DNA of 59,714 bases, counting the filler, from Bipalium vagum (lineage: Eukaryota), in NCBI GenBank assembly GCA_037834085.1. It is 3 parts of 3 records of this genome, joined end to end, with 100 filler letters (N's around TTAATTAATTAA, not from the genome) between each part and the next. Parts side by side here need not be neighbours in the genome. Positions count along the whole stretch, not along the records: positions 41,497 to 59,714 come from JBBMKC010035903.1; 2 more parts are not named here. One strand, given 5' to 3'. Shown piece after piece: positions 96 to 57,255 of the stretch; position 1 is the first letter of the stretch, and every line of letters starts with the position of its first letter. The notes below the pieces were generated by a model that had not been told where the DNA came from, did no database searches, and worked only from the letters and a program-made list of their open reading frames with translations. A program made the position numbers and the translations under genes.

Positions 96-1057
96 TAAAA
101 TAAAAACTTAAAATATCAGTTATTTTCTTGAATTTGAATTACTTTGTGACTTAATTTTTTTTAACTTGTTAAATTTTGATAATATTTATTTTGAAAGAGA
201 ATAATAATAAATACATATGAATTTTTGACTAAGTTCAATGTTTTACTGTTATCCTTATGGGAAATATATAAAATAAATAAAAATATATTGGAGATATAAA
301 ATTGTTTATTTTCTGTTAGAATTTAAAATAAAAAAATAATTTCAATCAATAAAATTTTTTAATAACCAATAGATTTTTATTATACTTTTTTGTCTAGATC
401 TGCACAAGTCCTTAACAAAATTAATTTCGAGCAATAAATATTTGTTTCTAACTCAACAATCACTACGCAGTGAACTCTGTATCTGGATGGATACTATAGA
501 ATTTTATTACATCTCCAGTAAAATATGAGTCCGGTGACATATTTTCGTAGTAACATTTTGTCGGAAATTTATGTTGAAGAGGTTAAAGAGGTTTCTGCTT
601 ATGTGAGCATTCCATTTCTTTTAAGAAATCAGATTTCATCCAATAATGTATTCCACACGAAATTATTGTCATTTGTTACGATGTTTGGTATTATTAATGT
701 GAATTTCTGATAATTTAAAGCTGGAAGACATTATTTAGGTCATCTTTTATAATAAGGCTTCGAAGTATATGTAACCGTTGTACTGATATCTGTGGGATGA
801 TAGTGGCAACTAAACAAATCATATATTACAGATATTGGCAAAATTATCGAAATTATAACATTCAGATTGGAATCTCATCAGTTATGGAATCTACATGTTT
901 TCTTATATAAATTTCAAACGTATTTCAAATATCAGAATTAAAAATTAATAATAAAATAACTCTGAAAAATATGAAAAATAATAATTAATAAGTACATAAC
1001 ATTAAATAATAATACTACACAAATAATAAAAAATGATAAATAAAAAATTATTAAATA

Positions 1058-1919
1058 TCAGGTGGGCCAGAAGGTAATCAATTATATATTCATTATTGTT
1101 ATCAATTATCGATTTCCAGTCTTCTAATTTGTCGATTCCATTTTTAAAAAATTTACTATCTTTAGATTCGAAGAAAGCCGTTAATCCATAATATTTTTTA
1201 GTGATCTGTTCCTCAAATCATGTTTCAGGGAGCGGAATAGATAATAATGTGACGGAGTGATGTCAGGTGAATGTGGAAGATAAGATAGAACCTCACATCT
1301 CAGCTGTCTAATCTTCTCTTTGGTCATTCTTGTGGAATGAAGTCAGCGCATTATCCTGCTGTAAAATTACCACTTCCAGGTTTACCAATCCTAGTCGTTT
1401 GAACATCAATTTTTTTGTAACCGGTTCAATTGATCACCAAACACACAGAAGAACATTCTTTTGATGTAATCCATCTCTTGCTGTTGACATCAGGGTTTCA
1501 CCTGGAGAGAGCAACTGTTTTTTCCTTTTATTTGTCTTGTACAGCATCCATTTTTCATCACCAGTGATAATTCTATGTAGAAATTGGTCATTTTTCAGCC
1601 TAATCAACTGTGGAGACTCCTACCATCAATTCAATCAAATCAAACAGGTGCATCAAATCCTTCAAAATAACATTGATTTTAAAAACACTGTAAATTGATT
1701 CTTCGTTGATTTTTGATGTATGAAAAATATAATTTTGTGTAGTTTTATTTATTTTGTGTAAAATTTAGAACCTGTTATATGCTTCTTTCTTATCTTAAAA
1801 TAAGTATCAAATAAAATATGAAATATAAAAGCATATAACCTTGAAAAGCATAAAATTTTTAGGTAATTATATTTAAATATGCATATATTACATAATTGAT
1901 TACTTTCCGGTTCATCTGA
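1058..1919 (-). mobile_element. Internally deleted, non-autonomous mariner element
   Basis: Imperfect TIRs (TCAGGTGGGCCAGAAGGTAATCAATTA vs revcomp TCAGATGAACCGGAAAGTAATCAATTA) with TA on each side. Minus strand gives decayed transposase motifs (RIITGDEK, QQDNA). 862 bp, shorter than a full mariner. Confidence 0.8.
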
Positions 1920-2099
1920 TAGCATTAATAAAAAAAATAGTTAACAATAATTTGAAAGATCATTGAGTTTATATTACTATTTATATTAATTTAATATATA
2001 TTAATAATAATATAATAATTTATTATCTATTAACTATTCATTATAACTATATTATTATTATTATTATTATTAGTTTTATTATTATAACCCAACAATACT

Positions 2100-2540
2100 G
2101 GTCAGCCAGCCCACAAGTCATGGAACGAAAGAGGTGTTAATCTGTATAGCCAATATCGGGCGATTGCTACGGGTGTTGTAGAACTTCCCATTTGATTGTT
2201 TCCAAGAATATTTTAACCGTTTTCAAAACATGTGGACAAGCATTGTCATGTTGCAAAATGACTGTTTTTATAATATGATCATTTGTCCCTTACTTTTTGG
2301 CTTAAACGCGTCAATTGATCTCGCTACCGATCTCCTTCGTTCAGTTGCAATAGAATTTTCTTTGGATAATTATGCTATACGGAAAATGGTTAAAGAAGAT
2401 TCGAAGTTGACAGACAGAGAGCTGGTAAGCATTCTTCGAGTTATTTGGTCAGCTGTTAAAGCATATCTTTATTTGATTTTCAAAGACTGAAGAACTGGTG
2501 CTTAGCTGCCAAGTGAGTTGACATTGAGTCAGTAAAAATA
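2100..2540. mobile_element. Two mariner transposase fragments in opposite orientation
   Basis: Minus strand ~2110-2330 reads ILQHDN...WEVLQHP*QSPDIGYTD*HLFRSM. Plus strand ~2350-2530 reads the HTH/linker region (IRKMVKEDSKLTDRELV...LPSELT). Confidence 0.65.
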
Positions 2541-2684
2541 CGTTTGATGATCTTCAATATTTGAAAAAATGTTAGTATAAAATTTTATTTAATAATTGAA
2601 TGGTAGAAAATTAAAATAATTTTGACAAATCTTCCTTTAAAAATTAAAAAAGTCTTTTATTATGAGTATGTATTTTCTTATATA

Positions 2685-3959
2685 TTAGGTTGGTGCAAAA
2701 ATAATGTCATTTTTAAAGCTCTAAAAGTAAAAACGTCACAACTCAATGGAAAATAAACTTTATTAATCAAGATAATTTCCATGCGAGTCAATACATTTCT
2801 GCCAATGAGTGATGAGTTTATTTATGCATGTGGTATAAAAGTCTTTGTTCCTGGAGGCAACAAACTCATTAAAAGCCATTTCAGCATCGGCTCGGGTTTC
2901 GAAGCACTTATTGACCAAGAAATTATCCAGAGTCTTAAAGAAATGGAAATCTGTTAACGAGAGGTCTGAAGAATATGGGGGTTGAGTCAAAATCTCGTAA
3001 CCCAAATTGTTTATTTTCTGCAATGCTTTTTGTGCGACGTGTGGGCGTGCAACAGAATTGGACCTTTTCTATTGACTAGTTTTGGACAGATGACTTGAAG
3101 TTTCCTATGCATTTCGTCTATTTGCTGGCAGTATGTTTCTACTGTAATAGTTTAGCCCGGATTTAAGAAGCTGTGATGAATCAGACCAGACATGGACCAC
3201 CAAATTTTTTACCATAATTTTTTTAGGGTGCAAATTTGGCTTTGGTAAATGTTTCGGAGCTTCATTTCTATCCAACCATTGTGCCGAACGTCGCCTATTG
3301 TCCCAGAGAATCCATTTCTTATCACACGTTACGATTCGATTGAGAAATGAGTCGCGGTTGTTGAGCAAAAGCAGAGAAGATGCTACTTCGAAACGACGAT
3401 TTTTTTGTTTTTCGCTCATGTCATATGGCAACTACTTATCCATCTTTTCACCTTTCCAATCTCGTTTAAGTGACGAAGTACTGTTGCATAATCAACCGCA
3501 AGTTCCGCTCCAACTTCCAATGTGGATTTTGATGCATCAGCTTCGATTATCTTTTTTAATTTATCAATGTCAACTTTACGTGAACCACTGCGACCATCCT
3601 CATCTTCAAGGTTATCATCTCCCTGACGAAATCTTTTAAACCAAAGTTTTAAACCTACGATGATTGACAGTTGCAGAATAAAATTCGTTATTTATTTTGC
3701 GAGCCGTTTCTGTAGCATTTGTGCCTAATTTGTATTCATACAAAAAATGGTTCGATATTGATATTTTTCCATATTCGGTTAAATCGCCTAAAAAGGATTG
3801 TTAAGAAATATTTTAAGTAATTTATAATAAAATTTACTTTGTAAAAATTTTACTTTAAAAAAATTATCAAAATATATTGAATATTTAAACAAACCATTTA
3901 TTAGAATGAATAAAATTAATGACTTGCCAAAAAACGACATTATTTTTGCACCAACCTAA
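2685..3959 (-). mobile_element. Full-length cecropia-subfamily (Hsmar1-like) mariner with pseudogenised transposase
   Basis: TIRs TTAGGTTGGTGCAAAAATAATGTC... / ...GACATTATTTTTGCACCAACCTAA, TA duplications, 1275 bp. ORFs 3105-3431 and 2763-3023 give QKNRRFEVASSL, RIVTCDKKWILWDNRRRSAQWLD, PPYSSDLSLTDFHFF, with frameshifts and stops. Confidence 0.92.
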
Positions 3960-4137
3960 TATTTTTTGTTTAAAATAAGATCTGAAAATCTTTAGATTTA
4001 TAATTTTTTTAAAGTTATTATACGCGAACCTGCTTTTAATTAAATTGATTGATCTACATGTATTAAAATTAAGAACTTAGACCGTTTTATAACAACCTAT
4101 GGATATATGTTTTACAACAAGAATATATTTAACTAAC

Positions 4138-7100
4138 TGATGACAAGCATGCCATTCCCAAGTTTCTCGATCCTTATAAGGTCGGAAATCTGCAGTTCCA
4201 AGATTTGAAATTATGGAAGAAAATTTTAACAAGCGTCTTTGAACAAGATGGTAAGTATATGGATCTCTCTGTTTCATTCTGTAAACTGCAGGAGGGAAGC
4301 ATCCTTCTTCAACCGCGCAAGCGACCTGTCTAATGGTAACTATATCCATATATAATGAATTCTGAATTTCAGGAACATCTGGAGCTAAATCTGGAAGAGC
4401 TAAGAAAAGAAAGACAAATAAGTAAGTCAGATAAAAAGAAATTCAGAAATATTTTCTTTTATATAAATTAAATGTAAATCTCCTTATAAACACCATATTG
4501 ATAAAATAATGGAAAGACTTAATAATAATGAAAATCTTAAGTCTTATTTTACAACCTAAAATTAAGTACAATATAATTAGATAACAATAAAATTGAATCT
4601 ACTTTATCAGTGTACATCATATATATAGTATACTCTTCCACAAAAAGTACTACATTTTAAAAAAATGAAAAACAAAAAATTACTAATAAGTAAATATTTT
4701 AATTGTTTTGTTATAAAATATCTGTTATTTAATATTCACTTGTTTTAATAATATAAATTTAATCGCGCATATCAACAGTAACCAATTTTCCAAAATTATT
4801 TTATCAGCCTTCACATGTCTTTTCACAACAACTATCGATGTTTGATAAAGGTCGATTAAGAAGCTAGGTCGAAGCCGGACTGACAGTCCTTGATGCTTCA
4901 AAAAAATAAAATTATCAACTATAAGAATTTAAAAATGGTGGTCACAATTAAAAGAAGCATATTTTGATCGAAAAAGTGAATCTGGCAGACCAAGAAAAGT
5001 AAGAGCTCAGGATGCTCATTTAGTACTAAAATGAAAAGAAAAGATCCATCTTTTATTGGCAGAGAATGGATCACAGATAATAATTTGGAATGTTCTATAG
5101 AGACAGCTAGACACAGGGCTGTAAGTGCAAGATATGAATCACATCCTGCAAGTGTGAGAATACCAATGAATTATATACACAGAAATAGACATCTGAACTG
5201 GACAAGAAAACATCTAAATTGGGATAGCAATAAATGGAAGTCTTTATTATGGACAGATGAATCCCGATTCTCACTGGTCTTCAATGATGGTCGAATAAGA
5301 GTCAGACGCCAGAAAGTCGAGAGATATGGTGTGGCACATGGTAGAATGACAGAACAGCTGCAGTTATCATTGATGGCACATAGAGTGCTGTACGTTATTT
5401 GAAAGAAATTATCAACCAGAAAATGCCTCAAAATACTGAACAGCATCATCTTATGCTGCAACATGATTATGCAAAGCCAAGCACTGCCAGAATAGTGGAT
5501 GATGCTTTGAGTGCTCGAAATGTATCAGTTCTTCCATGGCCTACACGTTCACTTGATGTCTTCCATCGAACATGCTTTGGACCAATTCGGTCGACGTATA
5601 ACAACAATATATGAGCAACCAGAAACTACAACTGAAGAGCTCGTCATAAGACTTTTAGAGCAATGGGAATTCATACCACAAGAAGATTTTCAAATTTAAT
5701 TTTAAGCATGGAAAAAAAGAATCAGAAAATATATTGAGAACATATGAGGACACGCTACGTTAATTAACAGTTCCAGGGCCAAATGCATTATTTATTTTCC
5801 GAACAGTTTCGATGGATTTTTTCCTGCCTAATTTGTATTCATTCAAAATAATTTTTCTCATTTGATATTTTTCCATTTCTAGAATAAAAATTTATGTTAA
5901 TTTATGACAAGAAATACATCATGAAATATTAGCTTTCTAATAGTATTAATATATGTGAAATATTAAAACAGGTTATGCATTAAAATCAATTAATTAATCG
6001 AATTACTAAAAAAGAATATTTTTGCAACACTCTAATAGTTGTTAACCCTATCATTAAATTTGTTTGTATGGTATAATTTTAGAAGAAATTAGTTTTTTTA
6101 ATTTGTAGTACTTTTTTGTGGAAGAGTATATATGAATGCAAGTAGTTAAAATGCCATTCATAATATTGTGAGATAAATTTAAAATTAGTCGGGAATGTCA
6201 GAGCAGTCCATGTGCATGTGAAAGGTCCTGGGTTCGAATTATTATTATCCAGTGTTTCCATTATTTTGTTCACGGCGTGTATATAATTAATATTTCTGAA
6301 TTCTACTTTTCTCTAATATTACACTGGAAAACCGTGATCCGAGTATGAAAATCGACTTAATTTAATAGTTACAATTATTTACTGAAGCGTTCATTTTTGA
6401 AAAATATCTTATGAAAACTTAATGAAACCATCATCAAGGCTGCAATTGTTAATCATTTTTTATGAATTGCTTGTCATATTAATTGTGTTTATGATTGTTT
6501 TGAACTAGGACTTGCGCTTTACCAGACAAGAGTGCTGAGCTCACCTTATACTTATTAATGTATCATTTGTAGAATAATTCATTGTCAATGAGTCAAGGAT
6601 TAAAATTTAATAATAGAATAATTGCAGAATGTCACAATTGTGAGTATGGACCAACTGTTAAAGTGACAGTTTGGATAGAAGATTCAGCGAAACCAGAGTT
6701 ATTATGGTGGTGACTGTTTATTGAAGTATTCTTTGTTTTGGAAATTAATATATTTCTGTTACCTTTGGTTAGTTGTAAGTAATAATCAAAAATGGAAAAC
6801 CTATTGTGATAGGTGATTTGTTGATTATGGCTAAATCATCACGAGTGGGGTTTGTCGGAATTTCTCTCAACATCTTTTACAATATAAAGATTATAATGGC
6901 TTCAGGAAATCTAAAATCACTATTTCCTTTCTGTAAAATAATATTATACCGAAAGTCTTCTTAATGTACTTTTTGGATTTTGAAATTAAAACAATAATTA
7001 AAATTTATTAGAATTAATATTCTGGAAAAATTTTGAAATCTTAGATGTACTGAAATTATTTGGTTTGGATAAAAAGTCCTTAGACTCGTGCAGAAATAGA

Positions 7101-44800: not shown

Positions 44801-47794
44801 GGATACTCATTTTGGGATTCGTTTCCACCAGTGTTTTTAGAGTGTCTTTATCAAACCCTGTAGGGCGTCCAGTTCGAGCCAAGTCAAAATCACCATTTGA
44901 AAATTTTCGAAACCGATTTTGACAATTATTGACCTTTAATACGCCTCCATACACATCACAAATCTTCTTTGTTTCAATGGTTGCATTAACACCTAATCGA
45001 AAATGAAACAGTATGGTTGATTCTCCACCATTTTATATTAGAATAATAAAAACGTTGAATTTAATTATGATCAATATTCAAGGTCAATGATTGTAATTTA
45101 ACGTAATAAAACACGTGTTTATATATTCAGGGCCTGAGCTAGAAAATAATTGATTACTTATGGGTACTATGAAAAAAAGTGAATTATTGAATATTATATA
45201 TATGTGCAAAAAATCACAGAAAATCGATAAAAACACTTGCAAAATAGAACAAGAATTGGTGAATTTAAAAAAAATCAACCAACTTTCTGAAGTTCACAAA
45301 ATGTTTTAAGTCGATTGATTTTCAACCAGGCCATAAAATCACAAGTTGGAATCAGTTCTTTTCTATTGAATCGATGCGCATCAAGAATCTTGTCCGAATT
45401 GCCTGTGGATAGTCCCATCAATTTTTGCAGTTGTCGGGTTAGAGTATTGTTAAATTGCGTTGCAAATTTTCTTGTAAAGTCATCGGCAGCTCTGTTGAGT
45501 TCCACAGTCTTCTCTTTGACGGCACACAAGTGCTCGAGACCTGTGTGTTTATCAAAACAAATGGAAATGAATACTATCAATCTATACCTTCAATTTTCGG
45601 AGCTTCCAGTACATATTGTAATTTTTCTGTCGCCTCTTTAGCCAGTATAACGGACTCCGTTTTTGATAGATCAAAATTTTGAAGAGCATTGTAATATCTA
45701 TTGTCAAAAGTGATGTGACATAAGAGTTCTTCTAGTGTCTTTTGCATCTCATCACGATTATGAGCGGTTAATCGAATAACTTCGTCCCGATCTCGAAGAC
45801 TTAACATTGACTCTTCAACTTCCTAAAATCAATCACGTTAAAGAAAACAACTAATTTTCCTGTTTCATCAAAGCGCAAATTTTGAAGAGATTTAATTTAT
45901 TCGTACTTTTTTATAAATAAACATAACTTTTAGGAAAAAAGTATACGAAGAACTTAACAGCGAAACCTAAATACTTCTACCGTCAACTAATCAAAACCAT
46001 ATTAAAAAATTGAAGCTATAAAACGATTGATCGGGAATTTTCTTCTGTAATTATTTTTTAAAAATATTAATGGTTTCTTTCATCATATTTTTAATTTTTA
46101 AATCAATTTTTCCTTCATATACAAAAATGTTTTTTTCTACTTCTAAAATACTCTTCGTCTCTAAGACATTTTCTATTTTCATGTAACTCATAAAAAATGG
46201 TTCCTTTTCATCAGATAAAGGCAGTTCTAACTCAAGAACATTTTCATCTCAATTTACTACTAAAATCAATTTTATATTCTATATACAAAAAGTCAATTAT
46301 TTACATAATTTTTAAGGTTTTCAGAGATCGATTTTATTTTGACTGATCAATATTTTCAGTATTTATTCAAAATTAATTGTTTAACATTTAACTTATTAAA
46401 CTAGTCTATTAGGTTAAATCGAAATTCATAATATCGATTATCTCAGACCAAGAACACAACCATCAGAGAAAAAGGAATAATCAATAAGTCTCTTGAAGGT
46501 TAACTGGAAAATATCCAAATTAAAGTATCACAATTACTTGAAATCTTATTTTATTTATTTTCTTGTCTATCCAACCGAATAATATAAATTGATTTCCAAA
46601 GAAATTTACTTTAAATACACTTGACAGTAATCTGAGAAAATGTATCGGTAAATATTACCTGACAAATTAATATAAATATAGAACTAATGAACTACTTGAT
46701 TTTAAATTACAACTATTATTACTATTTTAAATATAAAGTTATAATAATAATAAAATATATTATATCGATTTCCATTTAAATACTCAGAATATTTAAAAAT
46801 ATTACGCTACAATCAATATTCATAGAATAAAATATTTTTGTTATTATTTTTCTTTCACTTAAAATAATTGTTTAAAATCGATTAACCTAATTTTCCTTAC
46901 CGCCAGAAATTTATCTTGAACATCAATTTTACTTTCCAACAATTCTACTTGTTCAATGGCTTGATCTAGACATTCCATCAACTTGAGCATCTGATCCTCT
47001 GATGACATTATCGAATGGACATTTGTACCTTCCATAGCCAGTAAATGCTGCTTTAAGGTTTCTTGAAACTCGATGGCATTAATAACGGCTTCTGAAGACT
47101 CGTTCAGGAATTTTTGCATATTTTCTTCTTCAACAGCGCTAAGATTCTGATATCGCTTATAATCGGTGACATCAATCAACGCGGGATCTTGTTCTGTCTT
47201 TTCAACATCATAATCTATAATTTGTTACAGAGCATTAATGATATATATTAGAAATAATCATCATAGAGAAATTCTTGTTAAGTAGTAAAGATTTTAACCT
47301 GTTATTCCTTCACTTGATATTTTATCGAGATTAATACTGATCGGAAGATTATTAAATTTTATTGTTTTGAACAAATCCATGTCATGAATATACATAACAC
47401 GCATTAATCGCTCTATAAATCTATGCTTATCTTCTATAAGATTAGCAAATATTCGTTTCGCCTTCCCATCTGTACATATCAATTCGATATCATAACAAGG
47501 CTGGTCAGGATGATCATGACAGTCAACAGCACTGATATTTTTAGCATTGGCAACCAATTTTCTTTTAATTTCACTTCTTTCAGATCCTTTAACGATGTAA
47601 ATGTTTATTGAATTAGGTTTATTTAAAGACACTATAATAATATTAAAAATATATTATATAAGTAACATAATACAAGTTAAACACAAAAAAGCTCTTTTCT
47701 TTTTATTTGTTTCCGTGAATACATCTATGTGACATTCTAATTTTTCTGAATTGTTTTCAAAATATTTCTGTAATTCATTAAGAAGAATTTCCAT
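41819..47794 (-). CDS. EXOC1: Exocyst complex component 1 (Sec3), divergent, 3'-partial, 10 exons seen
   Basis: GT-AG exons 47794-47674 (ATG; KKKRAFLCLT), 47631-47299, 47214-46901 (AMEGTNVHSIMSSEDQ..LMECLDQAI), 45822-45588, 45540-45284, 43601-43508, 43457-43324, 42544-42446 (IFEDLLSKL..EEEFMTRLF), 42392-42129 (TKRSFNSYI), 42056-41819 (RCGILP...KIACESVKAPKD). Order and motifs parallel animal EXOC1. The gene runs off the contig. Confidence 0.85.
44271..45172 (-). mobile_element. Internally deleted mariner in EXOC1 intron
   Basis: TIRs TTAGGAGTACCCATAAGTAATCAATTATTT / AAATAATTGATTACTTATGGGTACT. HTH ORF 44727-44954 (FRKFSNGDFDL..RTGRP) joined to C-terminal LHHDN, HPPYFPD..APSDFHLFRSM. Confidence 0.88.
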
Positions 47795-47984
47795 ATAAGA
47801 ATGACTTTATATTAATTAAAAACTAATGGAAGTAATTTTAAAAAATTAACAGTCCAATCTCATTATTAAAACAATTTATATACTAAGGAATAATAAACAT
47901 GTTCTTAATACCTCAATATTTTAGATTTTGTTAATTGATGATAATAAAATGAAATTTAACAAAATGTTAAAGATAAAAATTTGA

Positions 47985-48237
47985 ATAATTTAGAAAGTAT
48001 TATATAAAATGCTTTCGATAAAATATTTGAAGATTCTAATAGGAAACCAGAAAAATTATGAGTTGATAAAAGAACAGAATTTTATAATAAAACATTTGAA
48101 AATTTTTGTGATGATAATGAGATTGAAATTTACTTCACAGAGAATGAAGAAAAGGTAGTTGTCATTGAAAGATTTAAAAGAACTCTAAAAATTTTAATGT
48201 TTAAAAAATTTACAGAACAAGGAAACAAAAATTTGTT
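47985..48237 (+). mobile_element. Maverick/Polinton-type (rve) integrase relic
   Basis: Manual translation NAFDKIFEDSNRKPEKL*VDKRTEFYNKTFENFCDDNEIEIYFTENEEKVVVIERFKRTLKILMFKKFTEQGNK. D-to-E spacing is 33. One TGA sits where Trp is expected. Confidence 0.8.
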
Positions 48238-48660
48238 GGGTTTACCCAAGACACTCCCCGGGGAAAAATAAGCAAGAAAAACCTTAAAAACAGTAAAAAT
48301 ATGGATAATAATATTAATAATTAAAATTAATTAATACTTGAAAAGCAATTTAAAATTCCCAGGAATTTTTATTTTGGAAATACTTAGGAAATAAAAACAA
48401 TCCTCCAAAAATAATTTTTATTTTTAAAGTAGTCTAAAAGAGGTATTTTATAAATAATAATAATCATCATAAAATAATTGTTAGGGAATTGTTAGACAGT
48501 TTTAGAATTTTAATAAAATATTTAGAATTTTAAGTACGATTTCGAGAATATCTTAAGAATATTTCCCTGATGAAGATCAGTCCTAAAAACAGTATATAAG
48601 CAAAGGGATTCCAGTATATTTTCACCTCTCAGAGAACATACAAAATAGTTTAAAGATTCT

Positions 48661-48720
48661 ATTTTACGACAGATATGGAGAAGACAGATTTCATTTTACG
48701 ACAGATACGGAGAAGACAGA
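48661..48720. repeat. Two-copy 32-bp-period direct repeat
   Basis: ATTTTACGACAGATA(T/C)GGAGAAGACAGA twice. Confidence 0.85.
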
Positions 48721-49949
48721 TACTATTAGGAAAGGACAGATACTGAATTTGAAGATTTATATTGAAATTTACGGATACAAGACCCGTGCCCAAATCAAGT
48801 ATTATTATTCTTCATTCCATAATCGGACTATGCTTAAAATTCCCCATCAGCGGGTTATTGGTGAGCAACCGTTCGGGCTCAGACAATAACTCGGACGTTT
48901 TAACCGAAGAAAAACCGTAAAATCTTCCTATTTTACCTTCTTTTGTAAAAGTATTATTTTGTTTTAATCGAATTTTAAAATTTTATTAACCGTTGACTAT
49001 ATTTAATTATTAGTATTTGATTTAACACTACATTTGATTCATTTTGACTATATTTGATTATTATTGATAGTAATGGATTAAATATTTAATTCATTATTTA
49101 TTGTTGTGTGGTGATTAGATAGTTTGAGGTTTTTGTAACATTTCGGACATTAATTGTGATCCCAGACTCTTGCTTATCTTTTTGTATTTCCGTGTATTTT
49201 GTGATTTTGTGGTATAAATACAATTATTGTTTTACTGATTGTTATTTTTTTTGCGCCACCTAAGAGTTGGCGTCACGTCTAAATATGATACCCTAAATAG
49301 TGCACACTTTGCAAAATGAAATTTTTTACTTATCAAACGACCAACAACAAACAACTGATACAAATGGTGACTACTTTAGGGAATAAATGTTTGTTTTTGT
49401 TCAAAATGTAGTTCTACTTTCATATCATATGTTTTTAATTAATTAAATTCGACTATTTAAATATTTTCGTTTACTGATAACAGTAAAATAAAAAAATATC
49501 AATATTCTGTTTTCGCTACAACAAATGCCACTCAGTTTTTAATTTCAGCTGTTTTATACATTATAATAAATGTTAATATAAATGAAACATTTTTATTAAT
49601 AATTACTATTAATAAATATAAATTAAAATAATAATATTACCAGAAATATATTCAATACTTTGGCGAATACAAAATGCAAAGGAATTTGAAGAAGAAACAT
49701 TAGCCATCCAACAAATACTGCGAAACCTATTTCAATATAAATGAATCCCAAACAGAGAATGATTTGAAATAGACTTGAAAGTATACTCCAAATCAAACCT
49801 TAACATAATTTAATAAGTAAATTTAACTGGATTAAAAATATTGATATTAAATTGCAAAAAAATTAAAACTTTGAACTGTTCATAAATAGATACTGGCTAT
49901 TTATTAAAATATTTATTTACTATGTCTGGCTTTAATTTATTCATTTATT

Positions 49950-50200
49950 CAGAACATTGAAGTTACAATGCTTCAAAAGAACTCAACTACTTATCTTCAG
50001 CCTTGGGTGCCGGTATTATAAAAAAACTATAGAATTATTACAGAAAAAGTTGCTAGTTGATTACATAAATTCACTTGATCAAACGAAAGCCTTTGTTGTT
50101 AATATTAAGAAAGCCATTTTGATACCCCATGAAACTTGGGAAGATGTGAAAGAAGAAACCATAAAAAATTATTTCTAAAAGGTTGCGATTGTCATTAGAT
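49950..50200 (+). mobile_element. pogo/Tigger (DDE_1) transposase fragment
   Basis: KNSTTYLQP..AGII followed by ..NIKKAI..WEDVKEETIKNYF, the C-terminal DDE_1 pattern, with frameshifts. Confidence 0.7.
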
Positions 50201-50916
50201 CTCCTTCTTTAGACTCACAAGGATGAGCTTGACCAAATAATGATTGAAGAGGATGTGATTCAAACAAAAGTAGTTTCGCGCAAGAAACATAATATATATT
50301 AATTATCTCTAATTGTTTTAATAGTTGCGTATTGTTAAATATTTTAAAATGTCAAACCAAGGCCTTCATCAACATTCTATTGATCCTTCTGTCAATGACG
50401 AGAGTCTATTCAAAACCCCTGGTGGTCATGGGAATTTGTACAATTTCTACATAGAAGAAAGTGAAGCCAATAGATATTATTTGCAACGATTTCTCTCTTC
50501 AATTCTATTGGTCATCATTTATATAAAATCAAAATATACAAAATTCGATTATTTGCATGTGATCTGTATACAGATCCCTCGTAAAAATCTATCTGATTTG
50601 TATAGATAAATATTTTTAATTCAGTCAGCTTTCTTAGAAAATAGTCAGAACTGTTTCCTGTGAAACGGAAATGAGTGGGGAAAATGCAAAAATAAGAATA
50701 TGATTAGCAAGAAATCTTGAACAAGATTTTAATAAAGAGAGGACACATAACAGCCCGAAATTATCAATTAAACTATAAATAACAAAATAGTGTCATATGA
50801 AATTGATTTAGAAAAATTTTTATAAGTGAACTTTTCAGTGATACTTATTAATTAAACATTTTAAACAAACAATGTTATAAAATTTTATAATTTCTTTTAA
50901 AAAATAAAAAAGTCAC

Positions 50917-53900
50917 TGGTGCACTGAAGAATTTGTTCAACGTCTACACTGCACAGATTGGCAATGTCTCCGCCATCGTTTTCTCTTCTAGCACGAATAC
51001 TTAATTTGAAGACCTAAAATAATAAATATATAAAATATCTATTAAAAAATTAATTAAGTTAGTCATATTAGGTCTAAATATTGCAAAGGTTCCCATTTTT
51101 ATAATCATAGATATCGAAAGATTGATATTTCTACAACATATAATTACAATTTCTTCTGTAAAAAAATCTTTATTGATGTCGATGCATTTCAACCTTTTTC
51201 AGGAAGTTGGCGAATATCTGAACTCCTCTTCTAAAGATGTTACATGGTCAACTGTTGTCTTTGACGTGTGTAGTTGATATTTTTTGCGTTTTGATTTATC
51301 GATGTATTTATAGAATATTAAAACAAGAAATTTTTTACATGATTAAATAATTACTTTTAATTTAATATTTACCTATCCAGCGAAAAACGCGATTAATTAG
51401 TGAGTTTGGAGCCATTTATTAAATGGGCACATTTACTAACTATAGACCTGATAATATTTTTTTATTTAAATAAATATATAAAATTACATATTTGGTCAAT
51501 TTCTTCACTTGTTTTCACAAATAAATGAATGTTTTCAAAATAAATGAAATTTTTATTATTAAATATATGTAATGTTTATCATATTTTCTTCTGTATATAT
51601 CTCTATATCAATGTTGAGACAATGATCTTCACACTGAACAGATTTGATAGTGTATTGCAAAATTAATAAATTTTATTTATATTTTAAATAGGTAAAAAGG
51701 TTTGTTTAAGAACATTTAGAAAATATTTTGAGATTTTATTTTTAATAAATCTTTTACCTTCTTGTATATCATTCCAAACAACGCAGCTCGTACTCTTAAG
51801 GCAATTTTAAGACCAATTATAAAAGAACAGTTTTCAGAAATTGTAGCTGCGATGCATTGAAAGAGAAAAAGAAATCCAAAAAATACTCCTATCCATGTTT
51901 CTTGATTTTCGGATTTCTTAAAAAACTTCAGCAGACCCCTGAAGAAAACAATGAACCAAATTCTCGTGAAACCTATTAGTTGCAATACTTGAGAAAAAGC
52001 GGTAAGGTCAAATAAAGAATATCTCGAAGCAATTTGACCACATTCAACACAATAAATAAATATAGATTATGTTTTGCTAAAGATTTTAACAAAATCAATC
52101 CGGAATTTGTGGAATGATCACCGTTAGACGCTTCATCTGGTGGTTCATGAATTCTACAACCAACCTTAAAATATATTTGATAAATATCAATATTGACTTT
52201 GGTTTAGGGGTTTTGCGTCTTGTTTCAAAAAATATTTTTTCAACTTCTTCAGTGAGTAATTGGCTTTCCTGATCTGGTGAAAGGTCAAAGACTGTCTCAT
52301 TGGTTATTTCTTCCTTAAACCATTGGAAAATATATCTGACATATTATCAATGTTTTCCTAAAAGAAAATTTACTTCTTACCTGTCCATCCACGCAACGGT
52401 AATTTTCGAAAAAATTGAACAATGTTGTTCTGGATTATTATTCTAAAAAAAGATTTATAAATATTTGCAAGACTTGATATGGACAAAGCACTAAAAATCA
52501 GTTAATTTTTATTTATTTAATATATTTAAGGGATTAAAAATCGAACTAACTAACTAACGCGTAAAAATTTGTAACGCGTAACATCCCCTAACCATCAGAA
52601 AATGCAGCAATCAAATCAAAATAGATCCGATTATGGAAAAATTTTAAAAATTGTTTCTATTTCAGTTGAACCTAATTTTAAAGAAGTATTAGAAAATAAA
52701 TATGGAAAGAAGTTATTTTTTAAGGTTATATTTTCATCAGCTTTTATATCTTGAATTTGAATTTCTAAAACTAAAGTTGATTCTAATCTAAAGCATTCAC
52801 CGATTGTAATAAAGAAAAGTTAGAATCCATCAGTATTTAATTTTGTTGCAATTGCTGTATTTAGAGAAATTTCTCGATTGTTACATTTTTTATTTCTTAA
52901 TTCTTGATGATAGTAACTATTATCTAGATTTAGTTTAGACATTTTTAATAGAAAAAATTTGAGGAATAAATTTAAAAACAAATTAAAATGCAGAGTATTT
53001 TAATGAGTATTTTAAAAGGAGACCATTTATGTTTCCTTCCACCATTTATTTAATTTACAAAGGTGAATTTTAGCAGTTTGACCTAGTGTTTAATTTTCTG
53101 ATGATGCAAGTTTCTAAAAACAATTATATAAATAATAAAAAATTCCGGTTGAGCGACAATCACTATTATTAATAAATGTTATAAAACAGAAATGAATATT
53201 TGAAAAATTATTAATCATTCATTACTAAAAGAATCGATTATCATCGATAAATTTAAATTCTTTTTCATAACACGTTGGGATGAGTAGCACTCAGCGTTAT
53301 ATGATTGTGATGAATATCATTCGTCTTTATTTGATTCGGTACCTGAGAAAATTTTTTTTGTTCCCTTATATCTGGGTAATTGTTATGTGTTGTCATCAAG
53401 TTAATGCAATTGTGGTTAGTTTTGACTAAAGATTACACAATCTTTAGACCACACCAATAATTGTTCCGACAGTTAATGTTTAAAATTCTCTACTATCTAT
53501 AATGATTTTTAGATCTTCTTGAATTGATGTAAAAGAAACGAACATGAATTTTGTAAATACGTGCTTAGAAAACTGAAAATTATGAAACGTTTTTCTGGGA
53601 ATCTGATCTTAACTATTAACATCTTCAGTATCAGTCTATAATAAATTAACACATCGTTCCTTTTCTTTAATGTATTGTCAACAATTTTCTCACTACCTGG
53701 ACTGAGATCGGTTTCCAAATTAAATCTCGTGATCACACCGGATATTGACATTAAAATTTTCTGAGATATTTTAGTTTTACCAATAAATCGTTAGTGCTCA
53801 CTTGTTTCAAGTTCTCTATATATTCGGCAAGTAAACGTTTTGAATAACAAACGTGAATAGACTTTTTAAAATCGACTTTAACATCGTCTTCTTCGTTAAA

Positions 53901-56900
53901 CAAAATAAGTTTTCTATTTCCAGTCAAGTGAAACAGTTATGCGATATTTCACCCACTACTTGAGGTTATCGAAAAGTTCTTTGGCAGATTTTAGAATGGC
54001 AGATGTAACATATTTTCTTAGCACTCTTTCCGAATACGCCATATTGCAACAAAATTGTTGTAATCCCACAGCTTTTATTTGTTTTGGTTGAGCGTGTAAC
54101 TTTAGCACTTCCATACTGTTTTTATATTTTCCTGTTTCATTGATACTCTGTATTTTGGATTTAAAACCACTGTCAAAAAATCAATCTCTCAAATTCTCAA
54201 AAACTTCCATTTTCTGCATTGAAAACGAAAATGATTTTGTTCCCATAATTTTGATTTTTAATCGAAGAAATGTTTAAATTGATTGGATTTCCGTATAATA
54301 ACAGTCATAAATTGTTTCCATGAAATTAAATCATTTTTATCGCTCATTTTAAAAAGATTTTTTGAAAGTCGACCTGTTTATCTATAATAAATAAGCAGCC
54401 AGGATTTCCACAATGGTAAATTTTCTTCATTCCTGTCTGAATGATTTATTGAATTCTGAACCATAATATTATTTGGAATATCTAATGAGCATATGACTAA
54501 TGAGCTTCTGCAACCATATTTTCCGTGCAATGCAACATTTTTTGTTCGGAAAAATACGATTTCCATAAAGCTATAAATATAGACATCCAAGACTTCTTCG
54601 ATTCCAAATCACAGGAATTGTATAAAGATGGCCTTATGAAATTAGTTTCTAAATGGAGTGACATCGTAGAAAACAATGGTGCTTATGTATTTAGTTAATA
54701 TATCTGTTCTGCGACGTCTTTCGTTATTTAAAGTTTTCCATAAAAACCTATCATCTCCATTCTCGAAATTCTTCTTAAAAAATTCATTCAACTTTTTCAA
54801 TTCTCTCTTATCCCCTGACACTTTCATTTTCACTATCACTTTTCACATTCTTTATTACATTCCTCTCATTGCGAAACCTTATTCCAACGTCTAGTTCTAG
54901 GCTCCGATCAACTTGACTTTTTATATCAATCTTAGATAAAAAGCATGGAGCCTATTTTAAAAAATTACACCAAAGAAGAACAATGGCCTGTTTTATGCAT
55001 AAAGAAGGTGTTTCTCTAGCTGATATCCACCAAAGTATGCTTGCCCAATATGGAGTACTTTGTTTTAACCGAAAAAACGTAAATAAGTGGATAAAAAAAT
55101 TCATAAATGGATGAATAAGCCTAATGGATGAAGATCTGTCCAGAAGACCTGAAACATCGAAAAAGTTGATAACATTGAACGAGTTGAAGAAATGATCAGA
55201 AAAAACAAGCCACTTACAGTTACTGAAATTAGTTCTGCACTTCATGTCAGTTATATATCAACTTAGTCAATGATTCACAACGAGATGGGATACAGTAAAG
55301 TATGTGTCAGATGGGTACCGAAACAATTGTCTGAAGATCAAAAACTAAATGGAGGCAAATAAAAATTATTTATTTTTGATGATGTAATAAATGAAAAAAA
55401 TCAACACATTATGGAAATGTACTTTATTAGAGGAAGATATAATCAATGTTCGATATTTATTAATCACAACCATTTTTTTGATTTACCTTTAAGAAGTATG
55501 TGAAATAATACAAATGTTTTAATATTTGTTAAAATTTCTAAAACGTATAAATCACAAATTTTTCAAAAATGTTATTTCATTTTATTGAAAAGGAAGAATT
55601 TGATTATTTATTTAATTTTCACATGAATAAAAAATATAATTATTTTTTATAAATTTAGAGAATGAATTTACATTGCATCTGCTTTTAAAATATATTTTAT
55701 TTTTAAAACTCAAAATTTCAATTTTTTCTGACGTTTTGTTAAATAATAATAATATTTAAATAACGTTATTGAAGGCTTTTATTGAATTATTGATATATGT
55801 TCTTACAAATAATATATGAAACCAATTTTATTTATTCATTGAACCTAAAACTATTATCAAAGATTAATTTTTAAAAATGTAAAAAGAATTCCCTTACCAT
55901 TTCATAATCATTGCGAAAACTCTGAAAGGAATTGATGACCAAAGACAAAAGAAGAGTAAGCATCAAAAAAGATGAATTGATCAAAATAAAAATTTCGAAT
56001 ATCTTTGACTCCTAAAATATAAATAATATAAATAATTATGTGAAAATAAATATTTTAATGACGAATTTCGAATAAACGTAAATACCTTGAGTAACTTGCA
56101 CAGGTTACCGTAGAACCTGATCACATATGCCGAATTTGCAGAGCACCAAAACACGAATAAAATATAATCAATTGTCGCAATTTCTTGGGACTTTAATTTA
56201 ATAACAATGGCCGATATTGCCTGAATTATTATTTTAATTATTTAATTATCGTCTTTAATAGTTCTCGTTTTAATTTTCATATTTATATATTTTTTGAGTA
56301 ATACTTTGTTTCATCTTTTGGAAAGCGTAAAAACAAATCAAAAGATTAATGTTAATATTTTAATATCAATACCAGTCTTTTTTAAAATGAGCTTTGTAGA
56401 TTTCATCTTACCATTTATTAAAAATTCCATTGTATTTAAACAATAAATAACTAAATTCCATAAAATTTATTATAATTATAAGTACATCATTATTGATTTA
56501 AGATTCAACGGTGAAAATTTTAACTTTTTAATAATATTATAAATTTATAAAATATTATTATTATTAATGAATATTTTTATTAATATTATTAAAATAATAT
56601 ATAATTTTTCATTTATATTTATACTTTTCCTCATTTTGCCTAGCATTTTTATGAATCGTATAGATCAAGTAAAGAAAAGCAATATTATACATTTTTGAAA
56701 AAATTATAATATATATAATATATAAATATAATAAACAAAAATAATTATTACAAAAAATAATTATTCAGTTTATGTTGTTTGAATTGTTACTTAATAATAA
56801 TGTAATATAATCTTACCAAACTGGTGGAAAAGAATATGAAGGAAAGGAAGAGAAAGGGATCTGTGACCTCCGAGAAGTAAAACTCGTTTATCATATCAAT

Positions 56901-57255
56901 TATGGAAAAGATTGCAGAAAATATCGGAAGAATCTATTGAGAAATTTAATTAATTAATTAATTAATTAAAAATTATTAACTTACAAATTCAAAGTTCCTT
57001 GACCATTTCAAACAATTGACTTTTGCCTTGTGCTCACTTTTGTAAACGTATTTTATTACATATAAAATTATTATCATTGTCAGAAATAATAAAGACACGA
57101 TCAATAATAACGAGAACTGAAAACAATTAGTAAATATTGGATAAGCCTTGTTTAGAAATAAAATTTCATTCTTAAAAATAATATTATTATTTTATAAATA
57201 TAAACCGATGGTATACCCAAAATCCGTCAAAGCAAATAAAACGTGAACTGTTCAT
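50917..57255 (-). CDS. Long-type ABCC/MRP transporter N-terminal part (TMD0 + L0 lasso + start of TMD1), apparently truncated
   Basis: GT-AG exons 57255-57217 (ATG..DGFW), 57170-56985 (PIFTNCFQ), 56933-56817, 56220-56086 (ILFVFW), 56011-55898, 52442-52381 (NPEQHCSIFSKITVAWMD), 52335-52198, 52153-51989 (KLLRDILYLTLPLFLK), 51938-51758 (GLKIALRVRAALFGMIYKK), 51013-50917 (VFKLSIRARRENDGGDIANLCSVD). These are collinear with the MRP1-like N-terminus. No further ABC exons were recognised. Confidence 0.8.
52643..52942 (-). pseudogene. Maverick/adintovirus-like major capsid protein N-terminal relic
   Basis: Single frame from ATG 52942 with one stop: MSKLNLDNSYY...LESTLVLEIQIQDIKADENITLKNNFFPYLFSNTSLKLGSTEIETIF. 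ITL.NN...LF....L...EIE.I resembles the N-terminal jelly-roll motif of Polinton-type MCPs (from recall). Confidence 0.6.
53280..54250 (-). mobile_element. Possible heavily decayed LTR-retrotransposon (Gypsy-like) remnant
   Basis: Weak gag-like (FCCNMAYSE..YV..AKELF) and LVWSKDC connection-like motifs, with many stops. Confidence 0.25.
54500..54700 (+). mobile_element. Mariner C-terminal fragment
   Basis: DIQDFFDSKSQELYKDGLMKLVSKWSDIVENNGAY. Confidence 0.7.
54960..55347 (+). mobile_element. Mariner N-terminal fragment (irritans-like)
   Basis: EGVSLADIHQSMLAQYG..KWIKKF..DEDLSRRP..IERVEEMIR..GYSKVCVRWVPKQLSEDQK. Confidence 0.8.
55362..55660 (+). pseudogene. A32/FtsK-like viral packaging ATPase relic (Maverick/Polinton type)
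   Basis: KLFIFDDVINEKNQHIMEMYFIRGRYNQCSIF / SQ.FFDLPLRSM*NNTNVLIFVK. Contains Walker B (hhhhDD), the RGR arginine motif, SQ and R.N motifs. Frameshifted, Walker A missing. Confidence 0.75.

Follow-up and report, generated by a model that had tools for sequence, protein, structure and literature searches.

Three decayed gene pieces in a stretch of the Bipalium vagum genome are almost certainly fossils of Polinton/Maverick elements: the middle of an integrase, the N-terminus of a major capsid protein and the rear part of a packaging ATPase. The stretch (59,714 nt of assembly GCA_037834085.1, filler included; hereafter the window) does not hold an intact Polinton at this locus. The pieces likely go back to two or more old insertions of a single multi-copy family and likely have no function today. 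Polintons are defined by an integrase, an ATPase and a capsid protein together with a polymerase (pPolB) and a protease, as set out in the available sections of PMC11161782 and of Krupovic et al. 2014 (PMC4028283), and the first three of these are present here, each as a fragment. The first-pass annotation had reported decayed frames at ~48.0 kb (+), ~52.8 kb (−) and ~55.5 kb (+) and assigned them to Polintons/Mavericks. Both points held: all three frames are truncated and contain stop codons, and profiles built from related loci matched them with E values of 1e-18 to 1e-20.

Three pieces of Polinton genes

The capsid piece (52649..52942, − strand) comprises the first 98 codons of a double-jelly-roll major capsid gene, from the ATG at 52942 to the end of the match at 52649, which is about the first quarter of the gene. 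It contains one internal stop and has retained its start codon, which faces the ATPase piece. Pfam alone matched neither this piece nor the ATPase piece. A phmmer search with the capsid piece found 10 proteins, the best being P0004 (E 6.7e-24, 57% identity); five were capsid-like and five were long repeat proteins, three of the latter named bacterial. The repeat proteins (P0005, P0006, P0009, P0012 and P0013, with 4-13 stretches each) were dropped before alignment as summed-repeat artefacts. The cut-off of PF21738, the double-jelly-roll family, was passed by three of the five capsid-like proteins, including the full-length relatives P0007 and P0011. P0007 reached 91 bits and is identical to the capsid piece at 43 of 97 residues (44%); identity to the metagenomic loci L001, L002, L003, L007 and L008, described below, was 37-41%.

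The first capsid model was poor (pLDDT 57.8), and the model of P0007 (pLDDT 79.5) was used instead. By structure alignment, this model matched the capsids of PBCV-1, faustovirus, Sputnik and mavirus with Z scores from 24.4 to 20.7, the best being PBCV-1 over 344 residues at an rmsd of 3.5. The double-jelly-roll fold was thus predicted on this full-length relative, the window having the fragment only. The nearest clusters in the ESM Atlas were dominated by Preplasmiviricota (score 0.96). Matches in BFVD were of at most 14% identity and included no Polinton capsid of this type, which does not show novelty. In a tree of capsid N-termini (19 rows), the window piece grouped with P0004 and P0007 (support 99/97), with an end branch of 0.77 versus 0.13 for P0004, and the wider grouping with L001, L002, L003, L007 and L008 was weak (81/78).

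The integrase piece (47984..48238, + strand, 255 nt) is intergenic and covers the middle of the catalytic core of a Polinton-type rve integrase. It has two stops in 94 codons and keeps the second Asp and the Glu motifs; the region of the first Asp and the C-terminus are absent. It alone among the three pieces had a Pfam match, to rve at E 8e-4, which is below the cut-off. Forty-two of 85 residues are identical to residues 253-355 of the integrase of L003, itself an rve match at E 6.5e-13, and identity was 49% to L001 and L003 and 42% to L012.

The ATPase piece (55361..55643, + strand) encodes the rear of an A32/FtsK-like packaging ATPase, starting at Walker B, with one stop and one frameshift; the Walker A half is absent. 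It is identical at 32 of 65 residues to the ATPase of L003, which matched Pox_A32 at E 4.5e-10. Identity was 48-49% to L003 and L007 versus 33% to L006 and L009, and the tail, read in a second frame after the frameshift, matched only L003 and L007 and scored above 300 of 300 shuffles.

Metagenomic relatives of the pieces

A metagenome scan with the capsid alignment yielded 14 loci from 296 pattern matches, and the ORFs of these loci match the window at three places only. The capsid piece was matched from all 14 loci, the ATPase piece from all four ATPase ORFs and the integrase piece from three of the four loci with an integrase, the fourth (L002) having only the far C-terminus. The capsid matches are partly circular, since the window piece was part of the query; those of the ATPase and integrase are independent of the capsid search, since neither gene was used to fetch the loci. 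Profiles from the relatives' loci matched the window at E 2.3e-20 (capsid), 1.8e-20 (integrase) and 8.2e-19 (ATPase). These were three of 10 gene profiles; the other seven reached E 0.16 at best, and a reversed-window control gave best E values of 0.4 for the three and 0.11 for the other seven. In local scans the pieces scored 65-70 bits, and none of the 20 shuffles run for each exceeded 7.2 bits. With only 1-12 sequences per profile, very old remnants may have escaped detection.

A single metagenomic contig, L003, combines a Pox_A32 ATPase, a capsid gene and a PLA2-rve integrase with a pX-like gene, and the three pieces are 39-49% identical to it. Capsid and ATPase genes stand head to head in L003 and L007, as in the window, and in tandem in L006 and L009. 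In the nearest relatives the rve integrase adjoins the capsid gene; Polinton-like viruses (PLVs) and virophages are mostly devoid of an rve integrase and form capsid and ATPase clades of their own.

An assignment of the pieces to unrelated families, such as a Ginger/Gypsy integrase or a host ATPase, had been raised with the first-pass annotation. This reading, or an origin from a PLV or virophage, is very improbable. It would fit the sub-threshold rve match as the sole Pfam result, the blank word-indexed protein searches with the pieces and the long repeat proteins that made up half of the phmmer capsid matches. Against it, all three pieces match genes that are co-linked in L003. In addition, four IMG/VR viral contigs retrieved with the ATPase alignment, in which no integrase or capsid of this type was detected, have ATPases identical at no more than 22 of 67 residues, versus 32 of 65 for L003. 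No match was found when viral contigs were scanned with the integrase piece, the capsid piece or alignment A1. Pfam scans in six frames and PDB scans in three frames lacked sensitivity on long stretches.

Other Polinton parts were sought with the same profiles and with local scans. The window gave no match to pPolB (one-sequence profile from L009), an absence expected for fragments, nor to the cysteine protease and the penton, or minor capsid protein (profiles of two and three sequences). Among the relatives, the ORFs called protease-like or penton-like are presumptive assignments from motifs and gene position, Pfam being silent. A stretch at 48587-48886 was considered as a penton fragment and rejected for want of a profile match. 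PLA2 is absent from the window, where the integrase profile that includes the PLA2 part matched the core only. Neither the pX-like gene nor the front half of the ATPase left a trace between the two intron pieces (profiles and local scans), and local scans of 48.2-52.6 kb found no trace of the capsid rear, the integrase rear or the endonuclease-like gene of L003. No TIR-like repeat or TSD was found in 47.8-56.0 kb, where the only inverted pairs were AT-rich and of 70-83%; the AGTAGT count is at chance level, being reached in 11 of 100 shuffles. Comparing the region with the window itself was uninformative.

Host genes and repeats around the pieces

The window DNA is AT-rich (GC 0.29) and contains an EXOC1/Sec3 gene (Sec3 in Pfam at E 0.002-0.004, below the cut-off), a dynein heavy chain gene and many mariner-like frames; the dynein and mariner labels are our assumption from motifs. 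Another host gene, which we take from its motifs to belong to the ABCC subfamily, was modelled at 50899..57191 (− strand) as nine exons with 411 open codons followed by a stop, the 5' third only. All eight introns are GT-AG, and exon 8 matched ABC_membrane at E 0.0011, below the Pfam cut-off. A motif search found no ABC nucleotide-binding motif anywhere in the window, and a PDB search with one ABCC exon was uninformative, the search being insensitive. The gene ends after about a third of its expected length, with the EXOC1 start 3 kb beyond, and this early end may reflect a recent truncation, a partial duplicate or an assembly join. Scans for Rfam families, tRNAs and promoters gave no match.

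Intron 4 of the ABCC-like gene (52443..55897, − strand, GT at 55897 and AG ending at 52443) houses both the capsid and the ATPase piece and measures 3,455 nt, versus 44-744 nt in the other seven introns. Exons 4 and 5 splice in frame across it. The earlier placement of both pieces in one ABCC intron was therefore borne out by the GT-AG bounds and the continuous frame, as was the claim that host exons separate them from the integrase: five exons, 5-9 (52442-50899), lie between the capsid and integrase pieces, spliceable and open, and share orientation and frame with exons 1-4. The integrase piece at 47984 is 190 nt upstream of the EXOC1 start codon (47794), on the opposite strand, and so lies in or beside the likely EXOC1 promoter.

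Two mariner remnants lie between the capsid and ATPase pieces. The 5' part of a decayed mariner transposase (54917..55345, + strand; HTH_48 at E 0.003, below the cut-off) abuts the ATPase piece and, compared with another mariner-like frame of the window, outscored all 200 shuffles; the 3' end of a second one (54504..54698, + strand) outscored all 200 shuffles in the comparison with three mariner-like C-terminal frames from the window. The intron had been said to hold mariner and retroelement debris, of which the mariner part was supported and the retroelement part was not confirmed, no Pfam match below E 0.05 being found at 53.1-54.3 kb.

Related copies were sought in X1, the only public run listed, likely of DNA. 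Of the sampled words, 0.54 occur in X1, and the window may itself derive from this run; no RNA run with window words was listed in the public-run word search. In this AT-rich DNA, 6,882 X1 contigs fall on 47.0-56.3 kb at 80% likeness. The summed depth was 14,534 in the integrase bin, 5,518 in the capsid bin and 16,317 in the ATPase bin, versus 26-590 in 14 comparison bins at 47.0-47.9 and 49.5-52.6 kb. Depth of this kind does not give a copy number, and a high-copy repeat borders on the integrase bin, so we took the depth only as a sign of multiple copies; by this sign the Polinton family looks multi-copy in X1. Fifty-one X1 contigs leave the window sequence left of 55361, indicating that the junction between mariner and ATPase is local.

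The high-copy repeat follows the integrase piece (48244..49487, no strand assigned). It has no Pfam, Rfam or tRNA match and shows the highest pile-up, with a summed contig depth of 21,000-54,000 in X1 versus 26 in unique DNA, and it includes a 32-nt tandem duplication at 48654-48717. A multi-copy decayed repeat at 53100-54450, within intron 4, had a depth of 450-4,800 in X1; its minus strand is what we take, by eye, to be faintly gag-like, with no Pfam support. A decayed frame at 49936-50200 (+), for which Pfam gave only a doubtful Mre11_C match, presumably resembles the end of a pogo/Tigger transposase, judging from its motifs.

We consider it exceedingly unlikely that the neighbourhood is an assembly chimera of repeats. 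Such a chimera could account for the ABCC-like gene stopping at a third of its expected length, and no listed X1 contig spans the stretch; on the other side, one unique X1 contig matches the window without a single difference over 47000-48036, extending into the integrase piece, and the reading frame is kept when exon 4 is joined to exon 5 over the intron.

Number of insertions

Our working history has two events, with the capsid and ATPase pieces left by one insertion into ABCC intron 4 and the integrase by another, and we judge its probability to be evenly balanced. The family would have encoded a capsid, with its capsid and ATPase modules head to head, and would have spread in the germ line by means of its own integrase. 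One copy may have entered intron 4 and lost its two flanks and part of its interior by deletion, mariner and further repeats being inserted between the surviving capsid and ATPase pieces, and another copy would have left the integrase piece upstream of EXOC1.

The separate insertion of the integrase, which the first-pass annotation had also proposed along with a rearranged piece, is supported by the five in-frame host exons that intervene: since these keep frame and orientation, the integrase cannot join the intron pieces without moving five exons. The unity of the two intron pieces is a closer call, and it stands at about even odds that they are one insertion. The head-to-head layout shared with L003 and L007 favours their common origin, and all three pieces appear, by sequence identity, to lean to the same relatives, L003 and its kin. 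The earlier suggestion that the capsid and ATPase pieces are one insertion broken by nested elements accordingly stands in part: the layout fits and mariner lies between the pieces, but the intervening gene and the front of the ATPase are untraced. About 1.2 kb would be expected between the two pieces, and 2.4 kb without a Polinton trace is found instead. Moreover, a multi-copy family can drop unrelated scraps in a repeat-rich intron, head to head is one of four layouts, and under the two-event history the match of the three-piece order to flipped L003 is chance.

The same observations bear on a looser history, in which the pieces are three independent scraps of one multi-copy Polinton family, gathered by chance in a repeat-rich stretch. 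We regard this as possible, though on balance it tends towards the improbable. The family looks multi-copy in X1, no Polinton sequence was found to link one piece with another, each piece is shorter than 0.3 kb, and the intron also holds two separate mariner pieces. However, three random pieces would fall within 7.7 kb of the 59.7-kb window with a probability of 0.046, a weak argument since the cluster was picked after the fact, and the capsid-ATPase layout is the same as in the nearest relatives.

The title of the first-pass annotation had presented all three pieces as a single shattered element, and this is unlikely. One element could have been broken by a rearrangement, perhaps one that also cut the ABCC-like gene near 50.9 kb: the order and orientation in the window (integrase +, capsid −, ATPase +) equal those of L003 when flipped, the integrase of L002 is also tail to tail with the capsid gene, and the end of the ABCC-like gene falls between the integrase and capsid pieces. 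However, exons 5-9 lie there with orientation and frame unchanged relative to exons 1-4, which no single deletion or inversion would produce, and the capsid rear, the integrase rear and the endonuclease-like gene are, as noted above, untraced in 48.2-52.6 kb.

Relation to known elements

The locus is real, dead and ordinary: a fossil of the well-described capsid-encoding Polintons, whose fossils are known, including in planarians. In the sections available, most vertebrate Maverick copies are described as degraded (Barreat and Katzourakis 2021, PMC8097293) and degraded adintovirus sequences as widespread in animals (Starrett et al. 2021, PMC8502044). A survey preprint, as far as its accessible text goes, places the majority of 781,111 viral regions in Orthopolintovirales and PLVs and also records insertions in flatworms (10.1101/2025.04.19.649669). 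For Schmidtea mediterranea, capsid- and ATPase-encoding Polintons are tabulated in Table S1 of PMC4028283, and the portion of PMC8532177 at hand gives its Polintons as piRNA targets; Maverick expansions in Dugesia are likewise reported in the available part of bioRxiv 10.64898/2025.12.11.693146. The planarian families named in Repbase include Polinton-1_SM and Polinton-2_SM.

Compared with Polintons/Mavericks (class Polintoviricetes) as a group, the window has three sub-gene pieces only, and pPolB, protease, penton, TIR and TSD were not found. The pieces are 37-57% identical to L001, L002, L003, L007, L008, P0004 and P0007, and whereas the genes of the metagenomic relatives have open frames and lie side by side, host exons and various repeats are interspersed in the window copy. 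The module layout of the nearest relatives differs from the vertebrate layout given in section 7 of PMC8097293.

The relatives resemble Alpha adintoviruses in one respect, L001 and L003 encoding a parvovirus-like PLA2 domain and L003 also a pX-like gene. In the available text of PMC8502044, PLA2-like genes are characteristic of Alpha adintovirus virion modules, with PLA2 joined to pX, and the Alpha/Beta split is defined on PolB, Alpha being the OTU-pfam03175 class. Unlike this arrangement, PLA2 of L003 is joined to the integrase with pX separate, and the window is without PolB. The portion of the PMC8502044 supplement at hand contained no flatworm or motif match, and no description of a PLA2-integrase fusion was found in the accessible text of the literature searched.

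It is rather doubtful that the parent family is an undescribed Polinton lineage, with an integrase fused to PLA2 and with capsid and pX/ATPase modules arranged head to head, present in aquatic metagenomes and in multiple, maybe complete, copies in this animal. If it were undescribed and had complete copies here, contigs L002, L003, L007, P0004 and P0007 would be linked to an animal host group. At best, the locus contributes one more host record and one more subfamily to the known capsid-encoding Polintons; it bears on no open question, such as Polinton virion formation.

Three arrangements were observed in the relatives themselves. A zinc finger and a parvovirus-like PLA2 domain precede the integrase in one frame at L003:5191-6606 (−), where pX is a separate gene, and the same order occurs at L001:1535-2353 (+) with the frame split by a stop. 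At L014:790-1578, a transposase, which we take from its motifs to be Tc1/mariner-like, interrupts the Polinton capsid gene, paralleling the nesting in the window.
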